From assembly GCF_012290005.1 (NCBI RefSeq), contig NZ_JAAXMS010000007.1:41991-105990 (forward strand): a stretch of 64,000 nucleotides of DNA. Direction: 5' to 3'. The translations under genes were made by a program, and so were the position numbers. Each line of letters opens with the position of its first letter. Position 1 is the first letter of the stretch. The notes under the pieces were generated by a model, which searched no databases, was not told the origin of the DNA, and saw nothing but the letters and a program-made list of their open reading frames with translations. Of this stretch, positions 12,955-50,024 are shown in pieces. This DNA comes from Crateriforma spongiae (GTDB lineage: Bacteria; Planctomycetota; Planctomycetia; Pirellulales; Pirellulaceae).

Positions 12955-14481
12955 CTATCGGGCCCACGCCGGCGTGCCGAACCAGTCGTGCATTTCTTTC
13001 TCGAACGGTGCGACGACGTCGCGTGGTTCGGCGATCCAGCCCCGGTCCCCCGTTTCGGTCATCCATATCTGCAAGGCGGTCCGCATGCGAATCAGCGTTT
13101 CGCGATGCTCGGCGATGTCTGATTCGGCCAGATTGTTGATCTCATGGGGGTCGGCTTGTGTGTCATACAACGACTCGGCCGGCATCGGTTTCATCAGTTC
13201 TGCTGCGGGGCCGATCAACAGACCCTGTTGATGCAGGTCACGCATCAGTGGCTTGACCAAGAAGCATTTTTCTTTGTAGCGATTCAGTGTTGCGAACCCC
13301 GTTCCCGGGGTCAGGTTGCGGATGTAGTGATACCGTCCGTCGTGAACGCTGCGTTGCGTGATCTCGGTTTCATCAATTCGGTCTCGCGCACTGAACGCAT
13401 AGCGACGTTCCGGTTGGTCGATCGAGCCAAACAGTGGACGGCCCTGCATGACGATGGGTGGTTTGATGCCGGCGATGGACAGCGTGGTCGCCGTCAGGTC
13501 GATCAAGCTGACCACTTCGTCGCGTTGTTGTCCTGCTGCAAATCCAATCGGGGGCTCGTGGTTGGCCGCCCATTGGATGACCAGCGGGACTCGGATACCC
13601 GAGTCCCAGACCCAGTGGATGCCCCGGGCTTCCAATCGACCGTTGTCGCCAAAGAAAATCACGACCGTGTCATCTTCCATGCCATCGGTCCGCAAGCGAT
13701 CCAAGATCTTCCCGATACGAATGTCTGCACCGGAGACGCTGTTCAGGTAGCGGGCCCATTCTTGACGGACGACGGGATGATCTGGGTAATAGGGAGGCGG
13801 GCTGACATTCTGCTCGGTTGCGACTTTCGGATGCCACTGTTCACCGACCCAGACGACGCGATCCTTTTCGGCTGATCGACGATCGTAGATGTCGTATTCG
13901 GCCTCGGGCAAATTGATCATCGCGAAGAACGGTTGATGCGACTTCAGCGTGTCCCAATTTTCGGTGTGATACAGCGGGCCTTCTGCGGTGAAATTCAAAT
14001 CCAGTTTGCCGGTGCCGACCACGGCATCACCGATGTTGGTGATATTCGCGGTGTAGTAACCCGCATCGCTTAATCGATGGGTGATCGGCCGGACGCCTTC
14101 GGGCAATCGAAATCCGTCGTCGCGATGCGACCGCATGTGATGGGTGTCCGTGGTCGTTTGGTACATCCCGGTCATGAACGCACTGCGACTGGGGGCACAG
14201 ACCGGTGACGTGGAAAACGCATTGACATAGCGGACTCCCCTGTCGGCCATTGCGTCGACGTTCGGTGTTTGGACGTTCTTGGCGCCGTAGCACTGGAAAT
14301 CCAAACCAAAGTTTTCGCCCACGATCCACAGGATGTTGGGTCTTCGCTGTGGCATTTCGGCACACAACGGTTGCCCTGCCCCGCCCAGGCAAAGCCACCA
14401 GAGACCCGCTGCCGCGGCACATGGCAAAATCAATCGATGGTTCCGGTGACGGGTGACTGGGTTCACGGTGGGCTCCGGCAA
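12955..14481 (-). CDS. Cys-type sulfatase (arylsulfatase A family)
   Basis: PNILWIVGENFG and the formylglycine signature CAPSRSAFMTG (C-x-P-x-R). Signal peptide present. Confidence 0.9.
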   Translation of the reverse strand: MPEPTVNPVTRHRNHRLILPCAAAAGLWWLCLGGAGQPLCAEMPQRRPNILWIVGENFGLDFQCYGAKNVQTPNVDAMADRGVRYVNAFSTSPVCAPSRSAFMTGMYQTTTDTHHMRSHRDDGFRLPEGVRPITHRLSDAGYYTANITNIGDAVVGTGKLDLNFTAEGPLYHTENWDTLKSHQPFFAMINLPEAEYDIYDRRSAEKDRVVWVGEQWHPKVATEQNVSPPPYYPDHPVVRQEWARYLNSVSGADIRIGKILDRLRTDGMEDDTVVIFFGDNGRLEARGIHWVWDSGIRVPLVIQWAANHEPPIGFAAGQQRDEVVSLIDLTATTLSIAGIKPPIVMQGRPLFGSIDQPERRYAFSARDRIDETEITQRSVHDGRYHYIRNLTPGTGFATLNRYKEKCFLVKPLMRDLHQQGLLIGPAAELMKPMPAESLYDTQADPHEINNLAESDIAEHRETLIRMRTALQIWMTETGDRGWIAEPRDVVAPFEKEMHDWFGTPAWAR

Positions 14482-14647: not shown

Positions 14648-16147
14648 ATGAAAAACGATTCGTCCCACCTGAGTACCAATCGCCGTCAATTCACCAAGAC
14701 ATCCGCCGGCTTGTTGGCCGCGGGAACCGCCGCACTGGCGTTTCCCAGACGTGCAATGGCCGATGCAAATTCAAAGATGCGGATCGGTTTCGTGGGTGTC
14801 GGAGGTCGTGGTTTCGGAGCCCATGTCAAAAGCTTGACGAAGCTGGCAAAAGAAGGCGCACCGATCGAATTGGTTGCCGTTTGCGACGTCTACAACGTCA
14901 ACCGTGAAAAGGCTGCGAAATACATTCAGTCCAACTTGGGCAACGAACCGGCCCAGCACGTCGATTTTCGCGACATGTACGCTAAGGAAAACTTGGACGC
15001 CGTCTGCATCGGTACGCCGGATCACTGGCATGCCAAGCAAGCGATCGAAGCCATGCAGGCGGGCATCAATGTGTACTGTGAAAAACCGATGGTCAAAAAG
15101 GTTGAAGAAGCCATCGACTTGGTCAAGGTTTGGCGAAAGACCGGCGTCGTCATGCAAGTCGGTGTCCAGTCGACCAGCTTACCCGTTTGGGATCACGCCA
15201 ATCGATTGATCCGTGCCGGCCAGCTTGGCAAGGTTTTGATGTATCAGACCGAATACTTCCGCAACTCGGATCTCGGTCAGTGGCGGTACTATGAATTGAC
15301 CAAGGAAATGAATCCCAGCAATATCGACTGGCGACGGTTCCTGGGGGTGGACGATGGCTTGTCCGAAGAAGTGCCATTTGACCGCGCGGTTTATCGCCAA
15401 TGGCGTCGATTCTGGCCATTCGGCAGCGGCATGTTCACCGATCTGTTCGTTCACCGAACGACGACGATGTTGAAGGCGACCGGGCTGCGATATCCGGCGC
15501 GTGTGACTGGTTCGGGCGGGATCTATCTGGAATATGACGGCCGCGACGTTCCCGACGTGTCAACGGTCGTGGCGGAATTTAACGAGGGCGTTCAAGGCTT
15601 GGTCACTGCGACCATGGCGTCATCAGAAACGCCGATCAAGCAAGTCATTCGCGGTCACCATGGATCGTTCGTGTTTGGCAACCAAGAAGACTTTGACCAG
15701 TTCACGTTTGTCCCCGAACGACCTCAGGTGACGCACATCAGTCCCAAGGAAGTTCCCTATGAACCGCAGATCATTCGTCCCGATCAGCGGATGCCGGAAA
15801 ACAAGAATCACGCTCACTTTCAAAACTGGATCGATGCGATGGTCGCGAACGATCCCCAACTGTGCAACAACACGCCGGACTTGGGTGCCGCCGCAATTGT
15901 GATCGTCAACTTGGGGGCACGCAGCTATCGCCAAGGCAAGGTGTACCGCTTTGACGGCGATGAAATGGCGGTTTCCGAAGCCGATGGTTCATGGGCCAAG
16001 CGTTGGGAAGACCGGTCGCACCAACGTGGCAAGCCCGAGCATGTTCCGGGCTGGGAAGCCGGCGACACGGGATCCAAGATCTTTGATCCGGATTACCAAA
16101 AGCTGGAAGGCCCTTGGGTCGACGGCAAAGACCCGGCCGGCGCTTGA
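14648..16147 (+). CDS. Gfo/Idh/MocA-family oxidoreductase with Tat signal
   Basis: Twin-arginine leader NRRQFTKTSAGLLAAGTAALAFP. Rossmann motif RIGFVGVGGRG. GTPDHWHA motif. Confidence 0.85.
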   Translation: MKNDSSHLSTNRRQFTKTSAGLLAAGTAALAFPRRAMADANSKMRIGFVGVGGRGFGAHVKSLTKLAKEGAPIELVAVCDVYNVNREKAAKYIQSNLGNEPAQHVDFRDMYAKENLDAVCIGTPDHWHAKQAIEAMQAGINVYCEKPMVKKVEEAIDLVKVWRKTGVVMQVGVQSTSLPVWDHANRLIRAGQLGKVLMYQTEYFRNSDLGQWRYYELTKEMNPSNIDWRRFLGVDDGLSEEVPFDRAVYRQWRRFWPFGSGMFTDLFVHRTTTMLKATGLRYPARVTGSGGIYLEYDGRDVPDVSTVVAEFNEGVQGLVTATMASSETPIKQVIRGHHGSFVFGNQEDFDQFTFVPERPQVTHISPKEVPYEPQIIRPDQRMPENKNHAHFQNWIDAMVANDPQLCNNTPDLGAAAIVIVNLGARSYRQGKVYRFDGDEMAVSEADGSWAKRWEDRSHQRGKPEHVPGWEAGDTGSKIFDPDYQKLEGPWVDGKDPAGA

Positions 16148-16175
16148 TCGAGATTCGCCGACTCTCAAATCGTTT

Positions 16176-16204
16176 CCATCGCGACGAAATCATCGTCGCG
16201 ATGG
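16176..16204. terminator. Perfect 12-bp GC-rich hairpin between convergent genes (putative bidirectional terminator, no U-tract)
   Basis: ccatcgcgacga-aatca-tcgtcgcgatgg. The arms are exact reverse complements. It sits between the stop at 16147 (+) and the stop at 16259 (-). Confidence 0.45.
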
Positions 16205-16258
16205 CCAGCGGATCGACGGTCCGGTGGACCAAGTCCTAATGTCAGTGCACCGAGGATA

Positions 16259-17611
16259 CTACCCTTGATGCGGGTGCTGCCAAGGTTCGCGGTAAGCACG
16301 TGCCAGCCGCGCGGTCGCTTCATCATCCCCAACGATGGTGTGCGTCGCGGGGTCAAATTCCAGCGTGCGTCCCAGTTCCATCGCCTCGTTTGCCATGATG
16401 CACGACGCACTGCTGATGTGGCCTTGTTCAATATCGGCCACCGGACGACTGCGATCGTCGATGCAGTCAAGGAAATTCTGCATGTGTCCGCGAATCGCCG
16501 AAGCGACATGTAATTCCAAACGCCACTTTTCTTTGTCCGTCAGGTCGGTCGGATACTTGTCGGTTTCGATCAGCGGTTCACCGTGCAAGCGTTCGCCGCC
16601 CTGACGTGGAATGAAGTCGTATTTGTGCACGCTAAGTTTCAGCGTGCCCTTGGTGCCATAGATAATGGCGGCCCAGGGATACTCCGGATCGGGCGGTGAT
16701 CCCCAAGTCCGATGTGTCCACACGACATCCAGCCCGTCAAAGTCGAAGGTGGCGGTTTGGGTGTCCGAGATGTTCGCCTTTGATTCGGTATCCACCAGGA
16801 TTCCACCGGTGCTGCTGATGCGTTTGGGCCACCCCAAGTCCAATTGCCAGCGAACCAAATCCAGCATGTGCACACACATGTCGCCAACAATGCCGTTGCC
16901 GTATTCCATGAATGCCCGCCAACGTCTGGGATGCACCCATTCGTTGTACGGGCGCATCGGGGCCGGCCCGGTCCACATGTCGTAATCCAGGTTCGCCGGC
17001 GGCTGTTGGTCCGGCGGATTGCCTTTGGCACGCATGTGGTAATAACAGCAAACTTCGGCATAGGCGACGTCACCCAACAGCCCCGCATCGATCACCTTTT
17101 GTTTGGCTTCGATCAGGTGTGGCGTGCTACGTCGTTGCGTCCCCACCTGAACGACACGGTCGTGCTTTCGCGCGGCATCCAGCATCGCCTTACTTTCCAT
17201 CACGTCGACGCCCGTGGGTTTTTGGACGTACACGTCGGCACCGGATTCGACCGCGGCGATCATGGGCAATGCATGCCAATGATCCGGCGTGCCGATGATG
17301 ACGATGTCGTGTTGGTGATTGGCCAACTGCTTGCGGAAATCGCCATAGGTTTTCGGACGATTGCCCGAGGCTTGGCGTTTGGCAAACAGGTCCGCCGCTT
17401 CCTCGCGCATCTGCGAATCGACGTCACAGACCGAAACGATCTCCACCGGTGCAATGTTCAGCAACTGCAACGTGTCACATTTGCCGTACCAGCCCGATCC
17501 GATCAGCCCGACTTTGCGTGGCGAATCATTTCCGGCCGCATGGGCCGACCGAGCAATGGCCGCGGTGGTTGCCGCGGTCGCAGATCCGCGCAGAAACTGA
17601 CGACGATCCAT
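16259..17611 (-). CDS. Gfo/Idh/MocA-family oxidoreductase with Tat signal
   Basis: MDRRQFLRGSATAATTAAIARSAHA leader. KVGLIGSGWYG Rossmann motif. GTPDHWHA motif. Confidence 0.85.
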   Translation of the reverse strand: MDRRQFLRGSATAATTAAIARSAHAAGNDSPRKVGLIGSGWYGKCDTLQLLNIAPVEIVSVCDVDSQMREEAADLFAKRQASGNRPKTYGDFRKQLANHQHDIVIIGTPDHWHALPMIAAVESGADVYVQKPTGVDVMESKAMLDAARKHDRVVQVGTQRRSTPHLIEAKQKVIDAGLLGDVAYAEVCCYYHMRAKGNPPDQQPPANLDYDMWTGPAPMRPYNEWVHPRRWRAFMEYGNGIVGDMCVHMLDLVRWQLDLGWPKRISSTGGILVDTESKANISDTQTATFDFDGLDVVWTHRTWGSPPDPEYPWAAIIYGTKGTLKLSVHKYDFIPRQGGERLHGEPLIETDKYPTDLTDKEKWRLELHVASAIRGHMQNFLDCIDDRSRPVADIEQGHISSASCIMANEAMELGRTLEFDPATHTIVGDDEATARLARAYREPWQHPHQG

Positions 17612-17667
17612 AAATCAAACCTGACGTGATGGGGAAACGAGCAATACGGTAAGAAAACAACCGGTCG

Positions 17668-18570
17668 CTAGACGACGCACTGTCGAACGGCGTCGGTCAG
17701 TCCGGCAAGCGGATCGCCGGCGGGGATGAATTCATGGGCAAAGTAGCCGTCGAAGCCGGTTTCAGCGATCGCCTGGGCGATCGGCGGGTAATACAGTTCT
17801 TGAGTGGCGTCCAGTTCGTGGCGTCCCGGATTGCCGCCGGTGTGGTAGTGGCCAAACGCGTCATGGTTTTCGCGGATGGTCCGGATGATGTCGCCTTCCA
17901 TGATTTGCATGTGATAGATGTCGTAAAGCAACTTGAAATTGTCACTGCCGACGCGTTTGACCAGTTCGACGCCCCAGGTGCTGTTGTCACACATGTAATC
18001 GGGGTGATTGACTTTGCTGTTCAGCAATTCCATGTTCAGGATGACGTTGTGTTTTTCCGCCACTGGGGTGATCTTCTTTAGGGCATCCACACAGTTCTTC
18101 ATGCCGGTTTCGCGATCGATACCCCGTGCGTTGCCGCTGAAACAGATCACGTTGCGCCAGCCTTCCTTTGCAGTCGCTTCGATCGCCGCGTTCATCTTTT
18201 CCAACGCTTCGTCGTGATACTTCGTATCGCACAGGCCTTTGCCCAGGGAGTGTGAACTGACCATCGTGCAGATCAATCCGTGCTTTTTCAGCGTGGGGAA
18301 ATCCTTCGGTCCCAGCAGGTCGATTCCGACCAATCCAAGGTTGGCGGCTGCGGCAGCCATTTCCTCCAGCGAAAACATCTTGTAACACCATTTGCACACC
18401 GATTGGTTCAGCCGGCCTTGCTTGGCATCGACATTCTCGGTCGCCGTGGCGGGCTTCTCATCGGCCGATGTGACACTGGTGGTCGCGGCAAGGCCGGCGG
18501 CGGCACCGCCCACCGTTCCGGCGATGGCTTGGCGGCGTGAAAGGACGTTGTTTTGATCGGGGTGGGACAT
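17668..18570 (-). CDS. Sugar phosphate isomerase/epimerase (xylose-isomerase-like TIM barrel; hydroxypyruvate-isomerase-like) with Tat signal
   Basis: SRRQAIAGTVGGAAAGLAATTSV leader. VILNMELLNSKVNHPDYMCD, DIYHMQIMEGD and HYHTGGNPGRHE match the AP-endonuclease-2/Hyi-type TIM-barrel pattern. Start trimmed to the ATG at 18570 (alternative 18600). Confidence 0.75.
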   Translation of the reverse strand: MSHPDQNNVLSRRQAIAGTVGGAAAGLAATTSVTSADEKPATATENVDAKQGRLNQSVCKWCYKMFSLEEMAAAAANLGLVGIDLLGPKDFPTLKKHGLICTMVSSHSLGKGLCDTKYHDEALEKMNAAIEATAKEGWRNVICFSGNARGIDRETGMKNCVDALKKITPVAEKHNVILNMELLNSKVNHPDYMCDNSTWGVELVKRVGSDNFKLLYDIYHMQIMEGDIIRTIRENHDAFGHYHTGGNPGRHELDATQELYYPPIAQAIAETGFDGYFAHEFIPAGDPLAGLTDAVRQCVV

Positions 18571-18851
18571 CAGCGGGCTTTCATTGAAATCGCGGGCCAT
18601 GCGTCGGGGGGACGCCACGGCACTGCGAACGTGCGGGAAATCAGCCCGCATTGTCTTCGCCCAACGGGCGGAAAGCAAGTTTATGCGGCCTGTCCCAGAT
18701 TGCCGCGTCTGACGCGCCGACGGAATTCGCTTTGCACCCGAATCGAACTTGTCGGGGCGTCATGGCGATGTGCTGTCTCTCGACGCGATACGATTGTGGG
18801 CACATCGCTTTGACGAAATCGTCTGCCGGCCGACCATGAAACGGAGTCCCA

Positions 18852-20297
18852 ATGCAATCGTATCAAGCCGCATGTCGAATGATGACGTGGATGGTGCTGG
18901 TCGTTGGGTGCACGCCTGCGACCTTGGCGACGGGCAACAACACAGCGAATCCCGACGTTTTGGTAATCGTTGTCGATGACATGAACGACTGGGTTTCCCT
19001 GTTGGATCCCAACGCCCCCATCAAAACTCCTCATTTGAAACGTTTGGCAAAGCGGGGCGTGTCGTTCACGCGAGCCTACTGTGTTTCGCCGGCCTGCAAT
19101 CCATCACGGGCCGCGACTTGGACTGGACTGCGACCGTCAACCACCGGTGTGTACGGCAACAAGAGCGATTGGCGGCAAGCGGTTCCCAGTCGTCGGACGA
19201 TCATGCAGCAGTTCATGGCCGCCGGTTATGACGTACGTGGTGCGGGGAAAGTGTTTCATCATCATTTGGACGGAGCCTTTCACGATGGTGCTTCGTTCCA
19301 TGACTTCCAGCCGATGCGTCCGCAGTCGTATCCACGCGAAAAGCGGAACCAAGCGGATGAATACGGATCTCGGAACACCGATTGGGGGCCGTGGCCACCA
19401 CGTGAATCCGATGCGATCGATGTTCACACGGCTGACTATTGCATCGATGCGTTGCGTCAGCCTTCCGATGGAGGGCCACAGTTTCTGGTCTGCGGAATCT
19501 TCAAGCCGCATTCACCCTTCTTTGCTCCCGCGGAGTATTTTCCGGCTTACGATAACATCGGCCTTCCTGTCCGCGATCCCAACGATTGGAACGATCTTCC
19601 AGACGGTGCCCATTCGTTGTTGCAACAGAAAGCGTGGTTCTGGCGGGGCATGATGGACCTGGAACGTCGTGCGAAAGGTTCCTATCACGACTTCGTCCAG
19701 GCCTACGCAGCATGTGCTAGTTTTGCCGATGCGCAAATTGGCCGAGTCTTGGATGCACTGGATCAAAGTCCCCGCCGCAACAACACGATTGTGGTGCTAT
19801 GGTCCGATCACGGTTTCCATCTGGGCGAAAAGGACCACATCGAGAAGTTTGCGCTGTGGGAAAAGGCGACGCACATTCCCTTCATCGTGGTGGCCCCAGG
19901 AGTGGCGGTTCCCGGTGGGCGTTGTGATCGTCCGGTTGACATGACCGTGTTGTATCCGACCTTGCTTGAACTTTGTGGTTTGCCTGTCGATGCGCGGTGT
20001 GATGGAAACAGTGTGGTTCCTTTGTTGCGGGATCCTCAGGCCCGATGGGTTCGTCCGGCGTTGATGACGTACCTGCCCGGGAATCATGCCGTCCGAAGTC
20101 AGCGTTGGCGTTACATCCGATACGCCGATGGCAGCGAAGAACTTTATGACCACAACGCCGATCCAGACGAGTGGATAAATCTGGCCGGCGAACATCGCTA
20201 TGCACCCGTGATCAAATCACATCGACGGTGGATTCCAGAATCCGAAGCCAAACCGGTCGTTGATTTACAACGCGCCGGTAAGAAAGCCGGGCAATGA
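18852..20297 (+). CDS. Cys-type sulfatase
   Basis: VLVIVVDDMNDW and CNPSRAATWTG (C-x-P-x-R). WSDHGFHLGEK conserved region. Confidence 0.9.
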   Translation: MQSYQAACRMMTWMVLVVGCTPATLATGNNTANPDVLVIVVDDMNDWVSLLDPNAPIKTPHLKRLAKRGVSFTRAYCVSPACNPSRAATWTGLRPSTTGVYGNKSDWRQAVPSRRTIMQQFMAAGYDVRGAGKVFHHHLDGAFHDGASFHDFQPMRPQSYPREKRNQADEYGSRNTDWGPWPPRESDAIDVHTADYCIDALRQPSDGGPQFLVCGIFKPHSPFFAPAEYFPAYDNIGLPVRDPNDWNDLPDGAHSLLQQKAWFWRGMMDLERRAKGSYHDFVQAYAACASFADAQIGRVLDALDQSPRRNNTIVVLWSDHGFHLGEKDHIEKFALWEKATHIPFIVVAPGVAVPGGRCDRPVDMTVLYPTLLELCGLPVDARCDGNSVVPLLRDPQARWVRPALMTYLPGNHAVRSQRWRYIRYADGSEELYDHNADPDEWINLAGEHRYAPVIKSHRRWIPESEAKPVVDLQRAGKKAGQ

Positions 20298-20339: not shown

Positions 20340-21278
20340 ATGCATAAGAACAGACTTTCTGGTTTGGTCGCAGCGACGTACACACCGTTGCGGGATGACG
20401 GAACGGTGAATTTGGATATCGTCGATCCTTTTGTGGAACACTTGTTCAACAACGGCGTCAGCGGTTTGTACGTCTGTGGCAGCACGGGTGAAGGCATGTC
20501 CCTGACGATCGCCGAACGAAAGGCCACCGCGGAAGCATTCGTACGGGCGTCCGGTGGTCGTCTGCCCGTCATTGTCCAGGTCGGCCACAATAGTCTGGCC
20601 GAGGCGAGAGGGCTTGCCGGGCACGCGCAGGAAATTGGCGCGGATATCATTTCGGCGACTTGCCCGTCCTACCATAAAGTCGGTTCGGCCGGCGGATTGA
20701 CTGATTGCATGATCGAGGTCGCCGGCGGCGCGCCGGATCTCCCATTCTACTATTACCACATTCCGGCCCTGACCGGTTCGAATCTGGATGTGCTTGAATT
20801 TTTGAAACGCGGCGGCGAAAAGATTCAAAATCTTGTCGGTTTGAAGTATACCGACACAAAGCTGTTCGAATTTCAGGAGTGTTGCGAACTGGATGACGGT
20901 CGATTTGATGTTGTTTGGGGATGTGACGAAATGTTGCTGGGTGCTTTGGCCACCGGAGCCACAGGTGCGATCGGCAGCACTTACAACATTGCCAGCGGCC
21001 TGTACCGCCGAATCATTAGCGCGTTCGACCAAGCCGATTTTGCACAAGCACGCCGGTGGCAATCGCTGTCAGTCAAGATGATTCGCACGATGAATGGCTA
21101 TCCGTTCCACCCCGCGATGAAAGCCGTTCTGGAGTTGCGCGGGTTTGCGATGGGTGGTTGCCGACTGCCGCAGGGACGTTTGACTTGCGACGAGATCATA
21201 CGATTGAAAGCCGAGTTGCAGTCAATTGGTTTTTTCGATTGGTCACAAGACGGTCCAAATCCCGGAACGACACAATGA
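20340..21278 (+). CDS. nanA: N-acetylneuraminate lyase-like class I aldolase (DapA/NanA family)
   Basis: GLYVCGSTGEGMSLT, FYYYHIPALTG and the VGLKYTD Schiff-base lysine context. The C-terminal half resembles animal and bacterial NPL/NanA rather than DapA. The genomic context (NanM-SSS fusion downstream) supports this. Confidence 0.7.
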   Translation: MHKNRLSGLVAATYTPLRDDGTVNLDIVDPFVEHLFNNGVSGLYVCGSTGEGMSLTIAERKATAEAFVRASGGRLPVIVQVGHNSLAEARGLAGHAQEIGADIISATCPSYHKVGSAGGLTDCMIEVAGGAPDLPFYYYHIPALTGSNLDVLEFLKRGGEKIQNLVGLKYTDTKLFEFQECCELDDGRFDVVWGCDEMLLGALATGATGAIGSTYNIASGLYRRIISAFDQADFAQARRWQSLSVKMIRTMNGYPFHPAMKAVLELRGFAMGGCRLPQGRLTCDEIIRLKAELQSIGFFDWSQDGPNPGTTQ

Positions 21279-21443
21279 CTGCCTTCTGGAAGACTGACCA
21301 ACCGACGAATCATGCCATCGCATGTCGGTCCGTTGCTTGTTGCGTTTCGAGCACTGGCATAGTGCCGGGACACCGCTCGTTCGCAGTAAGACGAAGCCTG
21401 TGTGTCGGTGCGATGATTTGGATGAACAGAATAGGCAGACAGC

Positions 21444-22943
21444 ATGAACGACCTTCGGTTTGATAATCAGGTTATCTCGAGTTCTTCCTTGGCGTATCGG
21501 CGGTATCGTGACAGTTGGGCCTACGCGATTTTGAGGCTGATTTGTGTGCCTGCGGTGATGCTGATGGTTGGGTCCAATCCGATCGTCGCGGAATCGGCAG
21601 ACACCAACGTGGTTCTGATCTTGATTGACGACCTGGGTTGGAAGGATCTCGGTTGTTACGGGAGCGACTATTACCAAACGCCCAATGTCGATCAGCTCGC
21701 CCGCGAAGGCATGAGGTTCACCAATGGGTATGCCGCGTGCAACGTCTGTTCTCCGTCGCGAGCCGCGATTGTTAGCGGCAAATACCCTGCTCGACTACTG
21801 TTGACGCAGTGGTTGCCGTCGGGGCGTTGGGATCCGCAAAAGATGCGACTTCGCGAAGGTCGCTACTTGGCCAATCTTCCGCTGGAGGAATTCACCGTCG
21901 CCGAGGCGATGCGAGATGCCGGTTACCGAACCGCTTTCATTGGGAAATGGCATTTGGGAACGGAGACTTACTACTATCCCGAGCACCAAGGTTTTGATGT
22001 CAATATTGCCGGTCGCGATTATGGGGCACCCGGCAGCTACTTTTATCCCTTTGAAGGTACTTGGAAGATTCCAACCACGGGAAAAGTGCTGCAAAAAACG
22101 TCTCCGCTTGCAGGCACCAAAGGCGACTATCTTCCGGATCGTTTGGCGGAAGAAGCTGAGGCGTTCATTCGCAAAAATGCCGAGCATCCATTCTTTCTGA
22201 TGCTGTCACACTACGCGCTGCACACCCCGTTGCAGGCGAAGCAGGAGAAGATCGACCGCTATCGTCAGATTCCAGAAAGCCAGCGGCAAGGAAAGCCCAC
22301 CTATGCGGCGATGGTGGAGAGCATTGATGAGAGTGTGGGACGCGTGATGGCGACGTTGCGGGACGTCGAGATCGATGACCAGACCCTGGTGATCTTTACA
22401 AGTGACAACGGTGGGAACGCGAATGTAACCAATCACAGTCCGCTGCGTGGGAACAAAGGGTCGAACTACGAAGGCGGTCTTCGTGTGCCGCTGATCATCA
22501 AATGGCCCGGAAAGACTCGCCCAGGTTCGGTGTCGGACGAACCTGTGATTGGAACGGACTTTTATCCAACCATCTTGGAAGCGACCGGCCAAGCGTTACG
22601 ACCGCATCAGCATGTGGATGGCGAAAGTCTGGTTCCCGTGCTGATGGAATCGGGCGGTTTGAATCGAACGGCCATTCATTGGCATTATCCGCATTACAAC
22701 CAGCATCCGTCGGCTTTCCCGTCCGGGGTGATTCGTGCAGGCGATTGGAAGCTAATTGAAGCCTACGAATCGCGAGAACTGTCACTGTACAACCTGGCCG
22801 ACGACCTTGGTGAAACCACAGATCTGTCGGAACTTCGGCCTGACAAGCGAGATGAGTTGTACCGACGGTTGAAAACTTGGCGCGACGCGGTTGGTGCGGA
22901 TCCGATGAGACCCAATCCGGAGTATCAGGAAGACCAACAGTGA
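21444..22943 (+). CDS. Cys-type sulfatase
   Basis: [29 protein letters not shown] and FTSDNGG. Its TGA stop overlaps the next gene's ATG (tgATG). Confidence 0.9.
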
Positions 22944-25576
22944 TGCGTCCCGCAATACTGCCCTGTGCCATCGTCCTGTTTTTCGTGCTTGCCGGCGCGG
23001 GCGATCCGAGCGTGTGTGCGGAAGACACGATCAGGCTTGATTGGCAAGAAATGCCATCAGTGCCGGACGAGCTAGGATTCGCCGGTCCGTTCGTCGGAAT
23101 TCATAATGATGCCTTGATTGTGGCCGGCGGTGCAAATTTTCCAAAACCGGTTTGGGAACAATCCAAGGTTTGGCACGATCGCGTCTTTGTGCTGACGCAA
23201 GCTGGTCTGAATGATGGCTGGAAAGAGGTCGGCAGACTGCCTCGGCCGATCGCATATGGTGCTGCGGTTTCGACGCAGATGGGCGTCGTTTGCATGGGCG
23301 GAAGTGACTCGCAGACCACTTATGACGACGTGTTTCTTTTGCGCTGGGACCCGGACACCGAAGCGATCGACGTCACATCGTTCCCAAAACTTCCCCAGCC
23401 GTGTGCGTATTCTACAGCGACGGTTATTGACGATGTGATCTATTTGGCCGGTGGCCAAAGCGGTCAATCGCTGGACACGGCGATGGCAAATTTTTGGTCA
23501 TTGGATTTGTCCCACAGGTCAAGCGGCGACGGCTGGCGATGGACCCAGCACCAAGTTTGGCCGGGGCCTGGACGAGCATTCAATCTGACCGTCCGGCAAC
23601 ACAACGGCTACAACGATTGCGTTTATGTCATCAGCGGACGCCGGCAGGATGGCGATCCGAACGATCCGGAGGATATTGAGTTCTTGCGGGATGTGTGGGA
23701 ATACAACCCGTCGACCGGTCACTGGCGTCAGCGTGCAGATGCACCACGATGTGTGATGGCGGGAACTGGCATTGGTGTGGGCCAAAGTCATGTCATGGTC
23801 TTGGGCGGTGCGACCGGGGAGTTGTTCTTTCAGGCGGATGAACTGAAAGATGATCATCCCGGATTTATCCGACAGGCTCTGGCGTATCACACGATCACTG
23901 ATACGTGGGTCCCTGCCGGTGAAACACCAATCAATCAAGTCACGACGACAGCGGTCAGGTGGGGTGACGCGATTGTCGTACCTAGTGGCGAAATTCGCCC
24001 GCGTGTTCGTACGCCGCGTGTTTTTCGTGTCAGCGTTGGTCGATCGACTGTTCGTTTTGGGGCCGTCAACTACATCGTGCTGTTCGGGTACCTGGCATTA
24101 ATGGTGGGAATCGGTCTGTATTTCGCACGAAAAAACAAAAGCACCGAAGACTATTTTCGTGGCGGAAAACAGATTCCGTGGTGGGCCGCCGGATGCAGTA
24201 TTTTTGCAACAATGTTGAGTTCGCTGACCTTTACAGGAATTCCATCCAAGTCGTTTGCGCAAGACTGGGTGTACGCCATTGGTAACTTGATGATTCCTGT
24301 CGTGGCGGTCATTGCCGTCTACATTGCGATGCCGTTCTTTCGAGGTATCGATGCGACCAGCGCATATGAATACTTGGAGAAGCGATTCAGTCGCTCCGTA
24401 AGATTATTCGGAAGCGCCAGCTTCACCCTGTTCCATTTGTTTCGCATGGCTGTTGTCATGTCTTTGACCGGGTTGGCCTTGTCGGTGGCCACACCGCTGA
24501 CACCCACACAATCGGTATTGCTGATGGGTGTTTTAAGCATTGTTTATTGCACAATGGGCGGCATCGAAGCGGTGATCTGGACAGATACGATTCAAACGGT
24601 CGTCTTGTTGGGTGGCGCAATGTTGGCTGTGGTGCTGCTGATCGCTGGTGTGGACGGTGGCGTGTCCGGGTTTTGGTCCGTCACCACGGAAGCGGACAAA
24701 TTCAAGCTTGCCAATTTTCACTGGGACATCACGAGCAGCCAAGTTGCTTTGTGGGTGGTTGTTGTGGGGGCCTTTGCCCAGAACATTTCGTCCTACACCG
24801 CGGATCAGGCCGTGGTCCAGCGTTACATGACCACCGCGGATACGCGATTGGCGGCGCGTTCGATTTGGACCAATGCGGTTCTGACGATTCCCGCGACGAT
24901 TTTGTTTTTCGGTATCGGAACCGCGTTGTTCGCTTTCTATCAATCGCATCCGCAAAAGCTGGATCCTACGATCACGACGGACCAAGTGTTTCCACTGTTT
25001 ATCGCTCGCGAGATGCCCGTTGGTTTTGCCGGACTGATTGTGGCGGGTATTTTTGCTGCGGCTCAGTCTACGGTTTCAACCAGCATGAATTCCACGGCAA
25101 CCGCGGTCGTGACCGATTTCATGCGTCCGAGGCAATTTTGCCGATCGGAGGCCGGGTATCTGGCCGCGGCAAGATGGTGCACCTTTTTGATCGGCGTCGT
25201 CGGTACGCTGCTTGCGATGGTGTTTGTGGACCCAGAGATCAAATCACTCTTTGACACATTTCTGCGTGTCATCGGTGTTTTTATGGGAGTGCTGGGCGGA
25301 CTGTTTGTCCTTGGCGCGTTGACGCGGCGAGCCAATGCAATCGGTGCGATGATCGGTGCCCTGGTCGGTGCCACGGTGATGTTTTGCCTGTGGAAATTTA
25401 CGCAGGTTAACGGATTTCTCTATACGGCAACGGGGATCACATCCTGTGTCGTGGTCGGGATGCTTAGCAGTCTGGTCTTTCAGCGGCCGGTTCAAGATTT
25501 GACCGGCTTGACCATCTACACCATGACTGAACCAGTCGACGCGCAACCGTTGTCCCGGGCGGAGGAATTGGGCTAG
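22943..25576 (+). CDS. Fusion of an N-terminal Kelch beta-propeller (NanM-like sialic-acid mutarotase) with a C-terminal sodium:solute symporter (SSS) permease
   Basis: Signal peptide [20 protein letters not shown]. Kelch/NanM-type repeats ([46 protein letters not shown]) run up to ~24050. From ~24060 there are ~13 TM helices with SSS motifs ([26 protein letters not shown]). Start trimmed to the ATG at 22943. Confidence 0.8.
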
Positions 25577-28500
25577 GAGCCCTCTTGGGTTTTGCCTTCC
25601 TCGAACGCCTTTTCAACGTCCTGGTAGGTCTGCACCATTCGATCCAACTGTTGTTGCAGTTGTTGCAAATCGGTGCCGCTTTCGATCTGGTTCTGCAGGA
25701 TCGGCCGCAGCCATTCTTGCATCAGATGAAATTGGCCTTTGACCAATTCGGCCAGTACGCGGGGAACCTTGTGCTGGACCAGTACCTTCTGGTCCGGCGG
25801 CGAAGCGGCTTGCTGTTGGGCGATTTGTTCCAAACGCTGTGTCGTCGCGTTGAGCGATTCGGAAAGCTGAGCTCCCGAAGTGACCAGTCCGTCTCGGATC
25901 GATTCGACACGTTGGTCCATGCGGCGTTGTTGGTCTTCATCACCGACCGCGACGGCACGACTGATCACGGCGCGGATCGATTCCAAGCCGTCGCGCATTG
26001 ATGCCAGTTGTCGCAGCAATTGCCCGGTCGTGTCGCTGTCGTCCAGGCCCGACATGCGGACGCTTTCGACGAAGGCGTATTTGATGCCGTCCCAACGTTC
26101 TTTCTGTTCTGGCGTCAGAACGCCCAACAGTTCGCGGAACTTCAGCATGTTCGCTTCGTTATCCGTGGTCAGCGTCTGGGCATCTTGTTCGTAACTGCTG
26201 ACGATCAGTGACTGCAATTCGCGATCGTTCATCACCGGCGCGACCTTTTCGGCGATCCGGTTCATGTTTCGATAGCTGCCTTGCAGTTTGAAAGGTGGTT
26301 CGGTTCGATAGGCGTCCGCTTGGGCGGCACTTTGGATGTAGGTTCGGTTGACTTTCAGGACGACGTCACGCACACGCAACAGTTTGCGAATGACTTCGTA
26401 CATGTCGTTCAGCTGGTCGGGGCTGATCTTGGTTTCCAGTTCGATCCCTTCCATCGAATCGCGCTGAGCCGCCGCGATGATGGCGCGGGCGTCCGATGGT
26501 GGCGCTGTCGATAGTGGTGCCAAAGTCGGATTGCTGGTCAAACAGTTTTCCAGATACGACATTTCGAATGCGTCGGAAGATTCACCGATAATTTCGCCCA
26601 AGTTGTATACGTCCGCACGGTTGGAAAGCATGTCGGGGATCTGGAACCGTTCGCCCGATTCGGTGTAGGGGTTGCCCGCCATGACAACCGCGACACGACG
26701 ACCGCGCAAATCATAGGTGCGTGTCTTGCCGTCGCGGACACCTTCGATCTTCCGCGTGGCATCGCACAAGGAGATGAACTTCTGCAGTAGTTCCGGATTG
26801 GTGTGCTGAATGTCGTCCAGGTACAGCATCACGTTGTCACCCATTTCCAGGGCTAAATTCAATCGCTGGACTTCTTCTCTGGCGGCGGCGTTGGGGGCTT
26901 CGGCGGGATCCAGCGAAGTGACACCGTGGCCGATCGCCGGGCCGTTGATCTTCATGAAGACGATCCCCAAGCGATTGGCGATGTATTCCATCAAGGTCGT
27001 CTTGCCGTACCCCGGTGGCGAGATCAATAGCAACAGCCCCATGCGATCGGTGCGTTTGCCGGCACCCGCAGCGCCGATTTGTTTGGCCAAGTTGTCACCG
27101 ATCAGCGGCAGATAGACTTCGTCCAGCAACCGGTTACGGACAAAACTGGTCAAGACCCTTGGTTTGAATTCATCCAAACGCATGGAGTCACGCGACTGTT
27201 CGACGATCCGGTTTTTCGATTCGTGTAGCCGCTGAAAACTCGGAACGACCGAACGGACGTAATGACTCATTCGATCGGTGAATTCGTGATAGTCCAACGA
27301 CAGCTTTCCGCCGCTGATTCGCGGATGGCTGCCGACGATTCCGGAAAGCGTTTGGGCCGTCTCTGCGGTGGCGGTTTTGAACGAATCCGCACCACCCCAC
27401 TGGATCAACAAGGCCAGTTCATTGCGGTGCGCGCTGGCTTTTTGACGATCGGAATCGGAAAGTGAATCGATATGGGCGTCCGCCCAGTTGCGGGCGAGAA
27501 CAAAGGCTTGTGTCGCCGAAACACTGGCTGTTTTTCCAGTGGTCGGCATTTTTCCTGCGGTTTGGAACTGCGTGTACAAGTCCGCCGCGTCACGGCTGAT
27601 CGTCGACTTGCGGACCGAGGTCGTCAGTTGGTCGAACAGGTAATCGGCCATCCGATGCGGTGTCAAAGTCGAATCAAACAGGGACGAAAATTCATCAAAT
27701 TGTGCGGTGATTGCGTCACACAATTGCTGGTGAAATTGACGCGCCGGTGTGGCATTTGGATACGCCTTGGCAAGTCGGCCGTAGCCGCCCACCCAATCAG
27801 AAAACGATTTCTGTGTGGCGGTGTCGGTTAGCTTCTTCAGCCACAGTAGTGACGCCGCACGGACCGTTGGCGAATGACGCAGCAACCCCAGTTGCCGATC
27901 CATCGCAAGCAGCGTGGTCAGCACGATCGCCGCATCATGATCGTGCACACCTTTTGCGTAACCTTCTTCGAAACGGCCCGCCATCTGTTTTTGGACCCAG
28001 GTGGTCCATTGCGGCAATGCCTCGGGATCGTCCGCATCAAGTTCGGTTGGAAGCGTTCCGCTGCTGATGGAACGAAACAGGTCGTACGCCAGGTATTCGC
28101 CACGATAGACATCGCGGTTTTCGCTGATCAATTCTTGATCCCAAAGATCGCGGGCATCTTCCAACGCCGCATCATGCAGGGGATCAAAGTACTGGGTGCC
28201 GGTCAAGTGAAGGCACATTTGACCGTCACGTAAGACGGTGGTCAGGTCCAGCGGTTGGGTATTGACGGCAAAACGCTTGTCGCCCAGACGGATGACTTCG
28301 CCGCCGTCCTCGTACAACTCGCGACGATCCTTCAATTGCCGAACGGCGTCTTCGCGAGCCGATTTCAGTCGTCCACGGAGGTCTTCGGCGCGGACGGCAT
28401 CGTTCAAGTCATCCAGCGAATCGACGATGTCGCGGACCTTTTGGACCATCAGATCGCCGGCAAAGTATGCGGCGATTTCCTCGGGAGTCTCGATCGTATC

Positions 28501-30819
28501 GATGCGCGACTTGATGCTTTGCAGGATCCGGTCCGCCGCAGTCGCCAGCGATTGTGCCCGCCGGTTTTGCTTTTCGACCAGCGCGACCTTGCGGCTTTCA
28601 AACGCCGCGTAGATCTCTTCCCGCCGAGTCGCCAATTGTGGAATGAAGTCGTCGAATTCCGCAAACCGGCCTTCCAGTTCCTCCAGTTGCAACATGACCT
28701 TGGTCAGGTACTGGTCACACTTGGCGGGCGTGTCGCAGATGTCCAGGTATCCGGCCGTGCTTTGGGCCAGCAACTTCATCTGTGACGCAAATTCCGCACG
28801 ACCCTCGACCGATTGAAGGTCCTGGATTCGGGCCTTTAGCGTACTGCGGACGCGATTGACCGACGCCAGCACGTCGCCGATGTTGTCGACGATGGTCGTG
28901 CGTTTGGTGGTGTCGTCGATTTTGAGATTGCTGACGGTTTCGGTCAGCATTTCCAGGTGTTCGGCCGTTTGGTCGATGCGTTCCTGGATCTCTTTTGCGG
29001 CTGCTACGGTTTCCGTTTGCTGGATCGTCGCATCGATCTCTGAAACGCGTTGCGTGTAGGGGGCCAGTGCGTCGTTGCCCAAAAGAAAATCGACACAACG
29101 TCGGCTGATCCGTTCGGCTTTTTCGACGACAGAGGTTTCCAGTGATTGCACCCGAGATTCGTCGACGTATCGCAAGTCTTTCAGGCCCAATGCGGCGGCC
29201 CGTTGACGTCGCAGTTGCGACAGGACGTCGACGAAATCATCGATCGATTCGAAACGACTGCGGTCAACCGTTTTCAGCAGTTCGTCGATCGCTTTGGCAA
29301 CACGTTTGGTCGCAGATTCCGTTTCGTTTTTTGCGCGGACGACCTTTTCGAATTCTTCGATCGCCGTGTTGGCCGCTTGGCGGATTTGAATCAGCGGCTG
29401 ATTCAGTCCCTGTGTTTCCGCTTTATCGATCCAAAAATACGAATCCAGGATGTCGCCAGTCTTCTTGGCAATGTCGACGTACAGACCTTCATAGCTGTCG
29501 TCTTTGTCGATCAGTTGCAGCACTTCGCTGCATTCGGACATGCCCCGAACGATTTCTTGGTTGCCGATTTTGAACAGTAGCGAATCGCTTTGGTGTTCGG
29601 CGATGAAGTCGGGGCCGGTAAACGGAGTCTGCCAGACCTGGATCGCGTGGTGTTTTTGCGGCTGGTCGTTCCCGGTGAAGCAGACCATTTCGCCACGCTG
29701 GAAAAACGTCTGGCCATGGCAGACCAACGGCGTGTCCACGGTTTGGTTGATCAGGTTGTAGCGAAGCTGGATGTAGGTGCCGCTTTCCGGGTTGTAGAAC
29801 AAGTACAGAAAGTCTTCGCCGTTGGGTGATGCGACGGTGCGCTGGAAACGCATGTCGATCAAGCCGTGATCGAAGCGTTTGAATTGACCCGTCTGCAGAT
29901 AATAACCGCCGGGGAAAATCAGCCCCTGGTCGCTGGGCAACATCACACAAGCGTGTTCGATTTCGTCCAGACGCATCGCCTGGCCCAATTTTCCGTTGAA
30001 CACAAAATGGCGGAACGTGTTTTCTTGGTAGGGTTTGATTCGGATCAGAATCAGGTTGCCGACGACCGCGTAATAGACCTCGGCGTCGTCCAGGGTTTGA
30101 TCCGGATTTTCGACCGGTTCGGCCAGAATGCCTTCGCCGCTTTCGGTGTTGTCTTCAATCTTGATCGTCAGGTCGCCACCGACCGTTTCGACGAACACCC
30201 GATCATCCAGACTGATGTGCGGATGTTTTCCGTAGACGTGTTGGTCGCGGGTGGTCCGCGTCCATCGGAATTCGTGCTGCGCGGGGTCACGGACTTCGTG
30301 TTCGCTGCGGTTGTCGACATAGACCAAGCGGTCATCGTCGATCCGCCATTTGAACGATTTGATATCTCGCGGCGTTTTGCCGACGCGAAAGACCATGTGC
30401 AGCAATGGCCCGTCACGAAAAAAGCGGGCGAAGGTCGTGCCTTTATAGAATCGATACAGTTCGGCAAAGTCGCTGTGGAATCGATCGTCGCCGATCAAGT
30501 CCAGCGATTCGGTGTGGAACTGGTGGTCATCGAATCGATAGGCGGAAAACACGTCGCCGATTTCGGTTTCCAGTTTCAGGCCGAACTGGACGTTGTACCC
30601 GAACAAAAAGCGGTCGCCGACGCTGATCAGATCACGCGGGACACAATTGTGTGTGGTGGTGACGCGTTCGGTCGTCACCAATTTCGTTTCGATGTTGCCA
30701 AAGACTTCGCTGCGTGAATCGTTCAAACGACGCAGTCGGTCACGCAGGTCCTTGGCGGCATCGCGGATGCGTTGACGCAGGACTTCGTACGTCCCGGCGG
30801 CCAGCTGGGTGTCGGTCAT
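25573..30819 (-). CDS. Giant (1748 aa) uncharacterised protein with an N-terminal beta-rich domain, a ~450-aa coiled-coil/helical region and a C-terminal AAA+ ATPase
   Basis: One uninterrupted ORF. Walker A SPPGYGKT (nt 26998..27021), Walker [10 protein letters not shown] (~26806..26832) and [29 protein letters not shown] (sensor/arginine region). Residues ~440-900 are heptad-rich and helical. I recognised no nuclease, protease or TM segment. Confidence 0.8.
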
Positions 30820-48527: not shown

Positions 48528-50024
48528 GTGAATCTTCAACATTCATCGGTATTTCGACGTTGTCCGTTTCTTGGGCAAGGGATTGCAGCGTTCGCCGCGT
48601 GCGTCGTTGCGTTTGTCGCGGGCACGGCGTCGGCTGACGATTGGCGGGAATTGTTCGACGGCGTTTCGTTACAGGGATGGAAGGCCGCCGAAAATCCGCA
48701 GACTTGGCGGGTCGAAGATGATTGCCTGGTTGCTGATGGACCGCGGAGCCATTTGTTTTATGTCGGAAACGTCGGAAATCACGACTTTCAAAACTTCGAA
48801 CTCATTGCCGAATATCGAACGCAAGTGGGGTGCAACTCTGGCATCTTCTTTCATACCGCATTTCAAGAGTCCGGATGGCCGAAGCGTGGGTACGAAGTCC
48901 AAATCAATGACACCTATGTGGCAAAGGGCAACTACCGCGAACTCAAGCGAACCGGCAGCCTGTACGGTGTTCGAAATGTCTACGATCGGTTTGCCGGCGA
49001 CGGCGTCTGGAACCAATTAAGAGTCAAGGTGGCCGGCCGACGTATTCGAGTTTGGGTGAATGATGTGCCAACGGTCGACTACGTCGAACCAGACGATGCC
49101 CCGCGAGCAGAGTCGCGTTCGAAACGAGTTCTGTCACGGGGAACCGTTGCTTTGCAGGCCCACGATCCCGACAGCCGGATCGCCTTTCGCCGTGTCGCAA
49201 TCCGCATGATTGGTGATGAGACATTTGATGACGCCACCGCCGGTCCAGTTGTCAGCGGGTATGGGGTGTCGTCCGAACAAATGGATCGTTTGGCGTCGGA
49301 GAACATCCCTGTCATCGACTATCACGTTCATTTGCGCGGTGGCATGACGGTGGACAAAGCCGTTCATCGGCGTTGTGTCACCGGCGTCAACGTGGGAGTG
49401 TTACGCAATCTTGGTGCGGGCTGGCCAATCGAAACTGACGAGCAACTCGAATCCTTTCTCGATTCCATCGGATCGAAGCCAGTGTTTGTGGGACTGCAGG
49501 TCAACGACCGCGATTGGATGGATCGTCATTCGCCGCAGCTACTCAATCGGCTCGATTTCATCTTGGCCGATACCATGATCATGCCCATGCCGACCGATGA
49601 CAGCCCACCGGTCAATCTGTGGATACCCGAAGGTTATGACATCAAGGATCCGGATGCATGGATGGAACGCTACATGCGTCACAACCTAAAAGTTTTGTCC
49701 GAACCCGTGACGATCCTGGCCAATCCGACGTACCTGCCGCCGCCGGTGGAACACCTGTACGACGCATTGTGGACCGAGGAAAGGATGCGAACGATCATCG
49801 ACGCGGCGATCGAGAACGAAGTGGCGCTGGAGATCAATGCCAGCAGCGGACTTCCCAGTGACCGGTTCATTCGGCTGGCAAAATCGATGGGGGCAAAATT
49901 CAGTTTCGGTACGAACAACTTTGATGATCAACCGATCGACATGGGACGCTTCGTCGAAGCGATCGAAAAGTTCGGTCTGACCAAAAATGATATGTACGTT
50001 GCCGATCAGCCGGGCGACGATTGA
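48528..50024 (+). CDS. Secreted DUF1080 (3-keto-disaccharide-hydrolase/LamG-like) domain fused to a PHP/amidohydrolase-like domain
   Basis: DUF1080 pattern WRELFDGVSLQGWK...WRVEDDCLV...NFELIAEYR...NSGIFFH...GYEVQINDTY...GTVALQAHDPDSRIAFRRVAIR. The C-terminal half has VIDYHVHLRGG, ILANP and VALEINAS, but FSFGTNNFD where PHP enzymes have GSDAH. Confidence 0.7.
   Translation: MNLQHSSVFRRCPFLGQGIAAFAACVVAFVAGTASADDWRELFDGVSLQGWKAAENPQTWRVEDDCLVADGPRSHLFYVGNVGNHDFQNFELIAEYRTQVGCNSGIFFHTAFQESGWPKRGYEVQINDTYVAKGNYRELKRTGSLYGVRNVYDRFAGDGVWNQLRVKVAGRRIRVWVNDVPTVDYVEPDDAPRAESRSKRVLSRGTVALQAHDPDSRIAFRRVAIRMIGDETFDDATAGPVVSGYGVSSEQMDRLASENIPVIDYHVHLRGGMTVDKAVHRRCVTGVNVGVLRNLGAGWPIETDEQLESFLDSIGSKPVFVGLQVNDRDWMDRHSPQLLNRLDFILADTMIMPMPTDDSPPVNLWIPEGYDIKDPDAWMERYMRHNLKVLSEPVTILANPTYLPPPVEHLYDALWTEERMRTIIDAAIENEVALEINASSGLPSDRFIRLAKSMGAKFSFGTNNFDDQPIDMGRFVEAIEKFGLTKNDMYVADQPGDD

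Follow-up and report, generated by a model that had tools for sequence, protein, structure and literature searches.

What does a planctomycete do with a gene that joins a mutarotase-like propeller and a sodium-dependent transporter in a single reading frame? The question is raised by a locus of Crateriforma spongiae (assembly GCF_012290005.1), in a stretch of 64,000 nucleotides (contig NZ_JAAXMS010000007.1, positions 41,991 to 105,990 of the forward strand; hereafter the window), where a gene of the siaF type encodes a signal peptide, a Kelch-repeat propeller and a sodium:solute symporter (SSS) domain. The product is, in our judgement, likely to be a SiaF-type (ST5 family) sialic-acid uptake protein; the feature itself is real, ordinary for this phylum and known as a class. 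This type of fusion was named the SiaF clade of ST5 transporters by Severi et al. (2021, Microb Genom 7:000614; PMC8461474), who found the clade in Bacteroidetes, Planctomycetes and Verrucomicrobia. We infer that the C. spongiae protein belongs to the clade from its architecture and from the sialic-acid transporter SiaT being by far its best solved relative. The gene and the parts of its N-terminal half are as follows (window coordinates):

22943..25576, + strand: siaF-type gene of 877 residues, encoding a signal peptide, a cyclically permuted NanM propeller and a symporter with 13 transmembrane (TM) helices (open reading frame (ORF), Pfam NANM and SSF, homologues)
22943..23020, + strand: predicted signal peptide, residues 1-26, cleavage between VCA and ED (hydropathy peak at residues 1-19)
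23036..24037, + strand: six-bladed Kelch propeller, the cyclically permuted NanM domain, residues 32-365, predicted to be periplasmic (TIGR03548, tandem NanM alignment, AlphaFold2 (AF2) predicted local distance difference test (pLDDT) mostly above 90)
23987..24010, + strand: putative catalytic motif G349-E350-I-R-P353-R354-V-R356 (aligned to E209...R215 of Escherichia coli NanM)
24038..24061, + strand: junction between the last propeller strand and the first membrane helix, Tm0, about residues 366-373 (about eight residues; AF2 strand 360-365, helix 374-395)

The reading frame is unbroken on the + strand from a TTG at 22877 to the stop at 25574-25576, and the ATG at 22943 gives the 877-residue protein, whose length and N-terminus agree with those of homologues. 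The upstream sulfatase ORF (21444-22943) ends with a TGA at 22941-22943, the last base of which is the A of the siaF ATG (TGATG); the overlap of the two genes proposed in a first-pass annotation of this DNA is therefore real, with one base common to stop and start. The same annotation had read a signal peptide, a NanM-type Kelch domain and an SSS transporter in one ORF, and both Pfam families, NANM and SSF, are indeed found in the translation. An NCBI entry of C. spongiae, annotated just as a 'sodium:solute symporter family transporter', matches the protein with 100% identity. The N-terminus of the protein resembles a Sec signal peptide (a basic residue, a 17-residue hydrophobic core and then the VCA/ED site), modelled by AF2 as a helix over residues 5-18 and as disordered, with low confidence, over residues 20-26; a leader peptide is also reported for the SiaF clade (PMC8461474). 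The signal peptide and topology calls rest on homology and heuristics. The AF2 model of the whole fusion has a mean pLDDT of 87.1 and a predicted TM-score (pTM) of 0.85.

A frameshift introduced in sequencing or assembly could have made one reading frame of two genes, a danger that the first-pass annotation had pointed out. The homologues speak against it. The best 120 of more than 3000 relatives are all 849-900 residues long, 67-76% identical and built of the same NANM and SSF pair; close homologues come from Allorhodopirellula, Novipirellula, Stieleria, Rubripirellula, Roseimaritima, Gimesia, Fuerstiella, Planctomicrobium and one Opitutales genome. A genome scan for siaF loci returned 65 loci, and 56 regions (the window and three further loci included) encode a full-length SiaF match. 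The spacing from the propeller motif GExRPxxR to the motif F(R/K)GG is exactly 48 residues in 119 of the 120 close homologues, and 47-51 residues in more distant fusions. With more than 100 full-length homologues (119 of 850-900 residues with the same architecture, from independent genomes and metagenomes), full-length matches in 56 genomic loci, a spacer of fixed length, a published clade (PMC8461474) and no point found in its support, the frameshift is ruled out for all practical purposes.

The N-terminal domain is, as judged by alignment, a cyclically permuted form of the NanM propeller. The Pfam NANM family (PF24996, N-acetylneuraminate epimerase) scores 118.8 bits (cutoff 45) within residues ~32-360, where several further Kelch models of Pfam also match, and TIGR03548 ('cyclically-permuted mutarotase') aligns with residues 44-360 over positions 2-322 of its 323. 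When mature E. coli NanM, translated from MG1655, was joined head to tail as a tandem, residues 32-363 were collinear with it, matching positions 229-349 and then 1-222 (24% identity, E 7e-20). The densest block of identity pairs GEAKPGLRT of NanM with GEIRPRVRT of the siaF protein, and sets Glu350 and Arg356 against Glu209 and Arg215 of NanM. Mutation of these two NanM residues reportedly abolished activity. According to a review, mutagenesis placed the catalytic site of NanM at one end of the central cavity. We scored the invariance of residues over the 119 homologues: G349, E350, P353, R354 and R356 do not vary, and the motif is also kept in members that are just 46-54% identical. The possibility, raised in the first-pass annotation, that the propeller might lack the active-site residues of NanM is thus not borne out, as the equivalents of Glu209 and Arg215 are present and invariant.

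A gap of about 22 residues in the siaF protein lies opposite a helical insertion of E. coli NanM, and the modelled propeller has one 10-residue helix (295-304) only; like the published SiaF fusions, it is without the helical dimerisation hairpin of E. coli NanM. Because the domain is cyclically permuted, the strand with the putative catalytic residues is its last-but-one structural element: the AF2 model has strands at 349-352, 355-357 and 360-365, and with the first membrane helix beginning at residue 374 the catalytic strand is only about 16 residues away from it. That the spacing is fixed at 48 residues and that this strand lies C-terminally both argue for tight physical coupling between the two halves, and a propeller 'at the mouth of the transporter' is plausible in view of the fixed and very short junction. 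In stand-alone members of the family the C-terminus lies 9-25 residues past the mutarotase motif, so that a fusion would need little beyond read-through into a downstream SSS gene. The top Foldseek matches to the propeller of the siaF model did not include NanM (2UVK); Foldseek searches sequentially, and the permutation of the domain presumably accounts for the miss.

The company that this propeller keeps in other proteins also bears on its function. A search with the propeller alone against 1.84 billion representative proteins gave 625 matches at E <= 1e-30, of which the top 150 were compared at the level of domains: 87 are propeller-only proteins, 57 are propeller-SSS fusions, four carry a GH33 sialidase before the propeller, one carries a sialidase after it, and one is a triple fusion of sialidase, propeller and SSS carrier. 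Fusions to sialidases fit an enzyme that acts on the product of a sialidase. The triple fusion (P0231, metagenomic, 1262 residues) has the GH33 YRIP motif, five Asp boxes, the motif GEIKPGIR and an SSS carrier, begins with a lipoprotein-like signal, and is 37% identical to the siaF protein over 881 residues; from these motifs it appears to hold a GH33 sialidase, a permuted NanM and an SSS carrier in one chain. If so, release, anomerisation and import would be carried out by a single polypeptide, and we found no mention of such a fusion in the literature examined. Five representatives (P0132, P0176, P0214, P0223 and P0252) are GH33-propeller or propeller-GH33 proteins without a carrier. Among the propeller-SSS proteins we also observed two tandem propellers with an SSS domain (P0121), a DUF1080 domain with propeller and SSS (P0261), and a propeller with HEAT repeats and SSS (P0169). 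In Parabacteroides merdae, N-acetylneuraminic acid (Neu5Ac) induces a gene from the same mutarotase family, along with a sialidase and an AGE epimerase.

The C-terminal half has the following features:

24056..25489, + strand: SSS transporter domain, SiaT-like, residues 372-849 (phmmer to 5NV9; Foldseek to 5NVA/5NV9)
24206..24229, + strand: unwound Tm1 segment A422-T-M-L-S426-S-L-T429, equivalent to A56...T63 of SiaT (Na2 carbonyls, carboxylate-binding Ser/Thr; mapping, invariance)
24443..24445, + strand: Arg501, equivalent to Arg135 of SiaT, which forms a salt bridge to the sialic-acid carboxylate (mapping, invariance)

Pfam SSF (PF00474) matches residues 404-809 with 135.9 bits, and NCBIfam TIGR00813 (sss) scores 201.5 bits, over its cutoff of 184 bits. 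The closest solved structure by phmmer is SiaT of Proteus mirabilis (5NV9; E 1.5e-109, residues 372-849 against 6-482), with 371 bits as opposed to 170 for the second-best, the human multivitamin transporter; in Foldseek, the AF2 model reaches target-normalised TM-scores of 0.95 and 0.93 with 5NVA and 5NV9, at 40-41% identity. The protein groups with SiaT and not with PutP, PanF, ActP or SGLT, contrary to the concern of the first-pass annotation that it might cluster with non-sialate carriers. SiaT, which binds beta-Neu5Ac, is built of 13 helices (Tm0-Tm12) and has its N-terminus in the periplasm. The count of 13 TM helices in the earlier annotation is upheld by the collinear alignment to SiaT and by the helices of the AF2 model, and its placing of the propeller outside the cytoplasm by the putative signal peptide combined with the N-out topology of SiaT, for which reason we assign the propeller to the periplasm.

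Mapping onto SiaT gives a site-by-site correspondence. The carboxylate-binding residues Ser60, Thr63 and Arg135, essential in SiaT, become S426, T429 and R501, all invariant in the homologues; Asn247 (a water-mediated contact) becomes N614, and Arg260 (inner gate) becomes R627. The Na2 site (Ala56/Leu59/Ala339/Ser342/Ser343) maps to A422/L425/A706/S709/T710, and the Na3 site (Asp182/Ser345/Ser346) to D548/S712/T713, where the two changes, S343T and S346T, retain the hydroxyl. A signature A-M-L-S-T / Y-G-N / R / D is common to all SiaF-type sequences examined, and missing from three unfused SSS proteins also caught by the scan. On these comparisons the carrier is of the sialate type, and it probably takes up two Na+ per substrate. 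Five residues of the substrate pocket differ from SiaT: Thr58 is M424, Phe78 is Y444, Gln82 is N448, Phe243 is A610 and Gln250 is S617. Gln82 and the hydrophobic N-acetyl pocket formed by Phe78 and Phe243 are thus not kept, and as mapped the pocket is roomier than that of SiaT around the N-acyl group and the glycerol tail.

The neighbours of siaF in the window are:

18852..20297, + strand: exported sulfatase with a lipobox-like signal, first gene of the same-strand string (Pfam Sulfatase; PDB 6HHM, E 5e-46)
20340..21278, + strand: homologue of NanA-type N-acetylneuraminate lyases, without a signal peptide, predicted to be cytoplasmic (best PDB matches 5AFD, 6ARH, 6H4E)
21444..22943, + strand: exported formylglycine-type sulfatase, stop overlapping the siaF start (Pfam Sulfatase; PDB 9FO1, S1_16, E 2e-138)
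25573..30819, - strand: convergent gene of a 1748-residue DUF3686/AAA ATPase, unrelated, downstream of siaF

The same-strand order is therefore sulfatase, NanA-type lyase, sulfatase and siaF, with the lyase two genes upstream of siaF. The lyase matches N-acetylneuraminate lyases, human NPL included, with E values of ~1e-58 to 1e-60, and dihydrodipicolinate synthases with ~1e-27; the sulfatase next to siaF is, after the S1_16 enzyme 9FO1, also near N-acetylgalactosamine (GalNAc) sulfatases. A scan for promoters and terminators (18.4-26 kb) gave counts not above those of shuffled sequence and was uninformative. At the other end of the gene, the siaF stop TAG and the stop of the convergent DUF3686/AAA gene overlap in the palindrome CTAG, which is enclosed by a small GC hairpin, GGGCTAGGAGCCC (25570-25582). 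With E. coli YjhC as a parallel, we also considered whether the GFO/IDH/MocA oxidoreductases and the TIM-barrel isomerase encoded at 14648-18678 belong to the pathway. They are not conserved beside siaF in other loci, where no more than distant paralogues lie near it, and were dropped.

The linkage to sialic-acid genes is more general than this one locus. Of the 47 loci with enough flanking sequence, 27 have a nanA homologue as the gene immediately upstream of siaF, on the same strand, and in 15 of 49 the next gene downstream codes for N-acetylglucosamine (GlcNAc) 2-epimerase; one or more of NanA, the epimerase and a GH33 sialidase are encoded within 10 kb in 23 out of 31 loci. A gene for a PhyH-family Fe(II)/2-oxoglutarate dioxygenase lies between nanA and siaF in a Gimesia-like locus (L003, 7077-7841) and in one from Pirellulaceae (L007, 7925-8689). 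Bremerella cremea has two SiaF paralogues about 140 kb apart on the same contig (L035, L041), one in a cluster with genes for a sialidase, NanA, an epimerase and an AraC-type regulator, and the other beside sulfatase genes, without nan genes.

Planctomycete genomes of this kind are rich in sulfatases. These were found within 10 kb of siaF in 10 of 31 loci, plausibly the background level, and a general enrichment of sulfatases around siaF was dropped. Only a specific orthologous pair, shared with loci L001, L057 and L064, looks linked to siaF. In Allorhodopirellula solitaria (L001, 2157-10613) the order is sulfatase, NanA, GH33 sialidase, sulfatase, an ORF of 84 residues and SiaF; its two sulfatases are 72% and 75% identical to those at 18852-20297 and 21444-22943 of the window and occupy the same positions. 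By this orthologous order, the window holds that operon minus the sialidase. The place of the sialidase gene is taken in the window by just a 165-nucleotide gap (21279-21443). C. spongiae may take up sialic acid that other organisms release, or its sialidase and epimerase genes may lie elsewhere. The 84-residue ORF of A. solitaria (7750-8004) resembles the N-terminal part of a sulfatase (tblastn to window positions 21555-21761 and 14185-14343, E ~1e-9), and is probably the remnant of a sulfatase gene. Sulfatases related to the one at 18852-20297 (33-72% identity, E <= 1e-56) occur near siaF in eight loci of different lineages (L001, L005, L007, L016, L018, L036, L057 and L064), beside genes for sialidase, NanA and SiaF, which hints at a sulfatase subfamily tied to the use of sialoglycans.

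The architecture of siaF and its conservation, its conserved residues and its gene linkage are observed directly, and from them we infer a mechanism, with its catalytic activity, exact substrate, Na+ stoichiometry and direct enzyme-to-carrier hand-off. A Sec signal peptide would export the Kelch propeller to the periplasm, where it would stay tethered by about eight residues to Tm0 of the symporter. The two exported sulfatases of the same string would probably desulfate the parent glycan in the periplasm, and retaining sialidases would free sialic acid as the alpha anomer. The propeller would then speed alpha-to-beta equilibration by means of its invariant Glu350/Arg356 motif, and the carrier, as do SiaT-type carriers, would take the beta anomer, with its carboxylate held by Ser426, Thr429 and Arg501. 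Co-transport would be with probably two Na+, one at Na2 (the carbonyls of Ala422 and Leu425 with Ala706, Ser709 and Thr710) and one at Na3 (Asp548, Ser712 and Thr713). In the cytoplasm, a NanA-type lyase would split the sugar into pyruvate and N-acetylmannosamine (ManNAc).

Several points weigh against this uptake mechanism. Our reading of the propeller motif presumes that Glu209 and Arg215 are the catalytic residues of E. coli NanM; TIGR03548 scores 146 bits, under its curated cutoff of 243.2; the NCBIfam NanA equivalog models score under their cutoffs for the lyase at 20340-21278; and no sialidase, GlcNAc 2-epimerase or other nan gene, nor a remnant of a sialidase or epimerase gene, was found in the 64-kb window. 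No member of the SiaF clade has been biochemically assayed (PMC8461474). The benefit of a mutarotase may be small as well: NanM stimulates the NanA-coupled turnover of Neu5Ac in vitro more than 20-fold at pH 6 and minimally at pH 8, since under alkaline conditions the anomers interconvert rapidly on their own, and loss of nanM lowers the growth rate of E. coli by 20% at most. As seawater is near pH 8, caution is due on the size of the benefit. This small benefit, along with the TIGR03548 score, the missing dimerisation hairpin and a junction of rigidly fixed length (which suggests a structural interaction with the carrier), would suit a propeller that is no working mutarotase and serves instead as a tethered domain for substrate capture or gating, in the role of a fused binding protein, or as the place where a periplasmic sialidase docks. 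But GExRPxR is invariant in all fusions examined and also in stand-alone members, and the same domain is fused to sialidases without any transporter, as expected of an enzyme working on what a sialidase releases; we regard a propeller without enzymatic function as very improbable.

The altered pocket for the N-acyl group and the glycerol tail also counts against the mechanism as worded for Neu5Ac; the protein may prefer another substrate. Among the SiaT residues, Thr58 is conserved least, and T58A is hyperactive. The functional SiaT of Staphylococcus aureus has both Q82N and F78Y, carries Neu5Ac and N-glycolylneuraminic acid (Neu5Gc) and prefers the latter, so that these two changes weaken the label 'Neu5Ac-specific' and not that of 'sialic-acid carrier'. 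The same architecture and mechanism could then serve Neu5Gc, 2-keto-3-deoxynononic acid (KDN), an O-acetylated or O-sulfated sialic acid or a related 2-keto-3-deoxy acid from sulfated marine glycans. The pocket is remodelled and roomier across the whole clade (F243A/G, Q82N/A, Q250S, F78Y, T58M), and in part the same changes (F78Y and Q82N, with F243N and not F243A/G) shift the S. aureus carrier to Neu5Gc; E. coli NanM also acts on KDN, siaF lies amid exported sulfatases whose orthologues accompany it in three other loci, and the host is a marine planctomycete, no mucosal commensal. Against such a substrate stand the carboxylate triad and both Na+ sites, which are as in SiaT, the neighbouring lyase, which is nearest to genuine N-acetylneuraminate lyases, and the GlcNAc 2-epimerase gene beside siaF in many relatives, a sign that the product, ManNAc, is N-acetylated. 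The sulfatase whose gene overlaps siaF is near S1_16 and galactose (Gal)/GalNAc sulfatases, whose target would be the underlying glycan and not the sialic acid, and the number of loci with nearby sulfatases may be close to background. On balance we think a substrate other than Neu5Ac unlikely, though worth keeping in mind. A bolder proposal, which we offer as speculation and consider doubtful, is that SiaF in marine Pirellulales is a hard-wired hand-off device, specialised for a modified or non-Neu5Ac nonulosonic acid and placed in a sulfatase operon for sulfated sialoglycans; the hand-off is suggested because the catalytic strand lies so near the first membrane helix and the spacer length does not vary. 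If true, this marine pathway for sialoglycans would depart from the gut paradigm, with Neu5Gc, KDN or a formerly sulfated sialic acid as substrate.

Returning to the SiaF-type sialic-acid uptake protein that we favour, the C. spongiae fusion agrees with the published clade (PMC8461474) in its leader peptide, a permuted NanM without the dimerisation hairpin, a 13-helix N-out/C-in SSS carrier and the linkage to nan genes, and differs in nothing essential; local to this locus is the string of sulfatase, NanA-like lyase, sulfatase and siaF, without a sialidase or epimerase nearby, and sulfatases are not mentioned in the main text of that paper. The published rationale is that beta-Neu5Ac is fed straight into the transporter, with experimental evidence described as 'very scarce' (PMC8461474). 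The same source confirms the impression of the first-pass annotation that the fusion had already been remarked on for planctomycetes and was uncharacterised biochemically. In the later literature that we searched there was no further mention of SiaF and no characterised NanM-SSS fusion.

P. mirabilis SiaT (5NV9/5NVA) matches the carrier half over all 13 helices, and the two have in common the Ser/Thr/Arg set that binds the carboxylate and both sodium sites (Na2, Na3), but SiaT has no N-terminal enzyme domain, and the five pocket residues are changed. E. coli NanM (YjhT, 2UVK) shares the six-bladed Kelch propeller, the signal peptide and the motif GE(A/I)(K/R)P..RT; it is a soluble dimer, whereas the siaF propeller is permuted (~24% identity), with its catalytic strand at the extreme C-terminus, tethered and probably monomeric. 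NanM-NanZ of Akkermansia (ST4), in which an exported NanM-like domain also stands N-terminal to a putative sialic-acid carrier, is an independent case; that carrier belongs to the major facilitator superfamily and needs an extra N-terminal helix to correct its topology, whereas in the SSS carrier the N-terminus lies in the periplasm from the outset and no such helix is required.

Farther along the window we observed a fall in G+C content from ~0.57 to ~0.50 between 56000 and 62000, where the large ORFs (56890-58125, 58157-59776 and 60376-61545) have no Pfam match; the segment could be an island that is foreign or particular to the lineage. A DUF1080 (3-keto-disaccharide hydrolase) protein is encoded at 48528-50024, with the same domain as in the propeller-SSS fusion P0261, and a sulfotransferase-family protein at 54035-55276.

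As the concept, the phylogenetic spread and the rationale of SiaF were published in 2021, this locus adds just an example, together with details of residues and context: a residue-level site map, an invariant junction and a C-terminal catalytic strand on the one hand, and on the other context statistics from about 50 planctomycete and verrucomicrobial loci, a variant of the operon embedded among sulfatases, and relatives that contain a sialidase. SiaF is a clean natural case of a metabolic enzyme covalently joined to the outer face of a secondary transporter, and is useful for asking whether anomer conversion limits uptake and whether coupling beats a free periplasmic enzyme. Planctomycetes bring large glycans into an enlarged periplasm, and a chain of sialidase, mutarotase and carrier, here joined by sulfatases, is relevant to the ways in which marine bacteria exploit sulfated and sialylated glycans of animals or algae.

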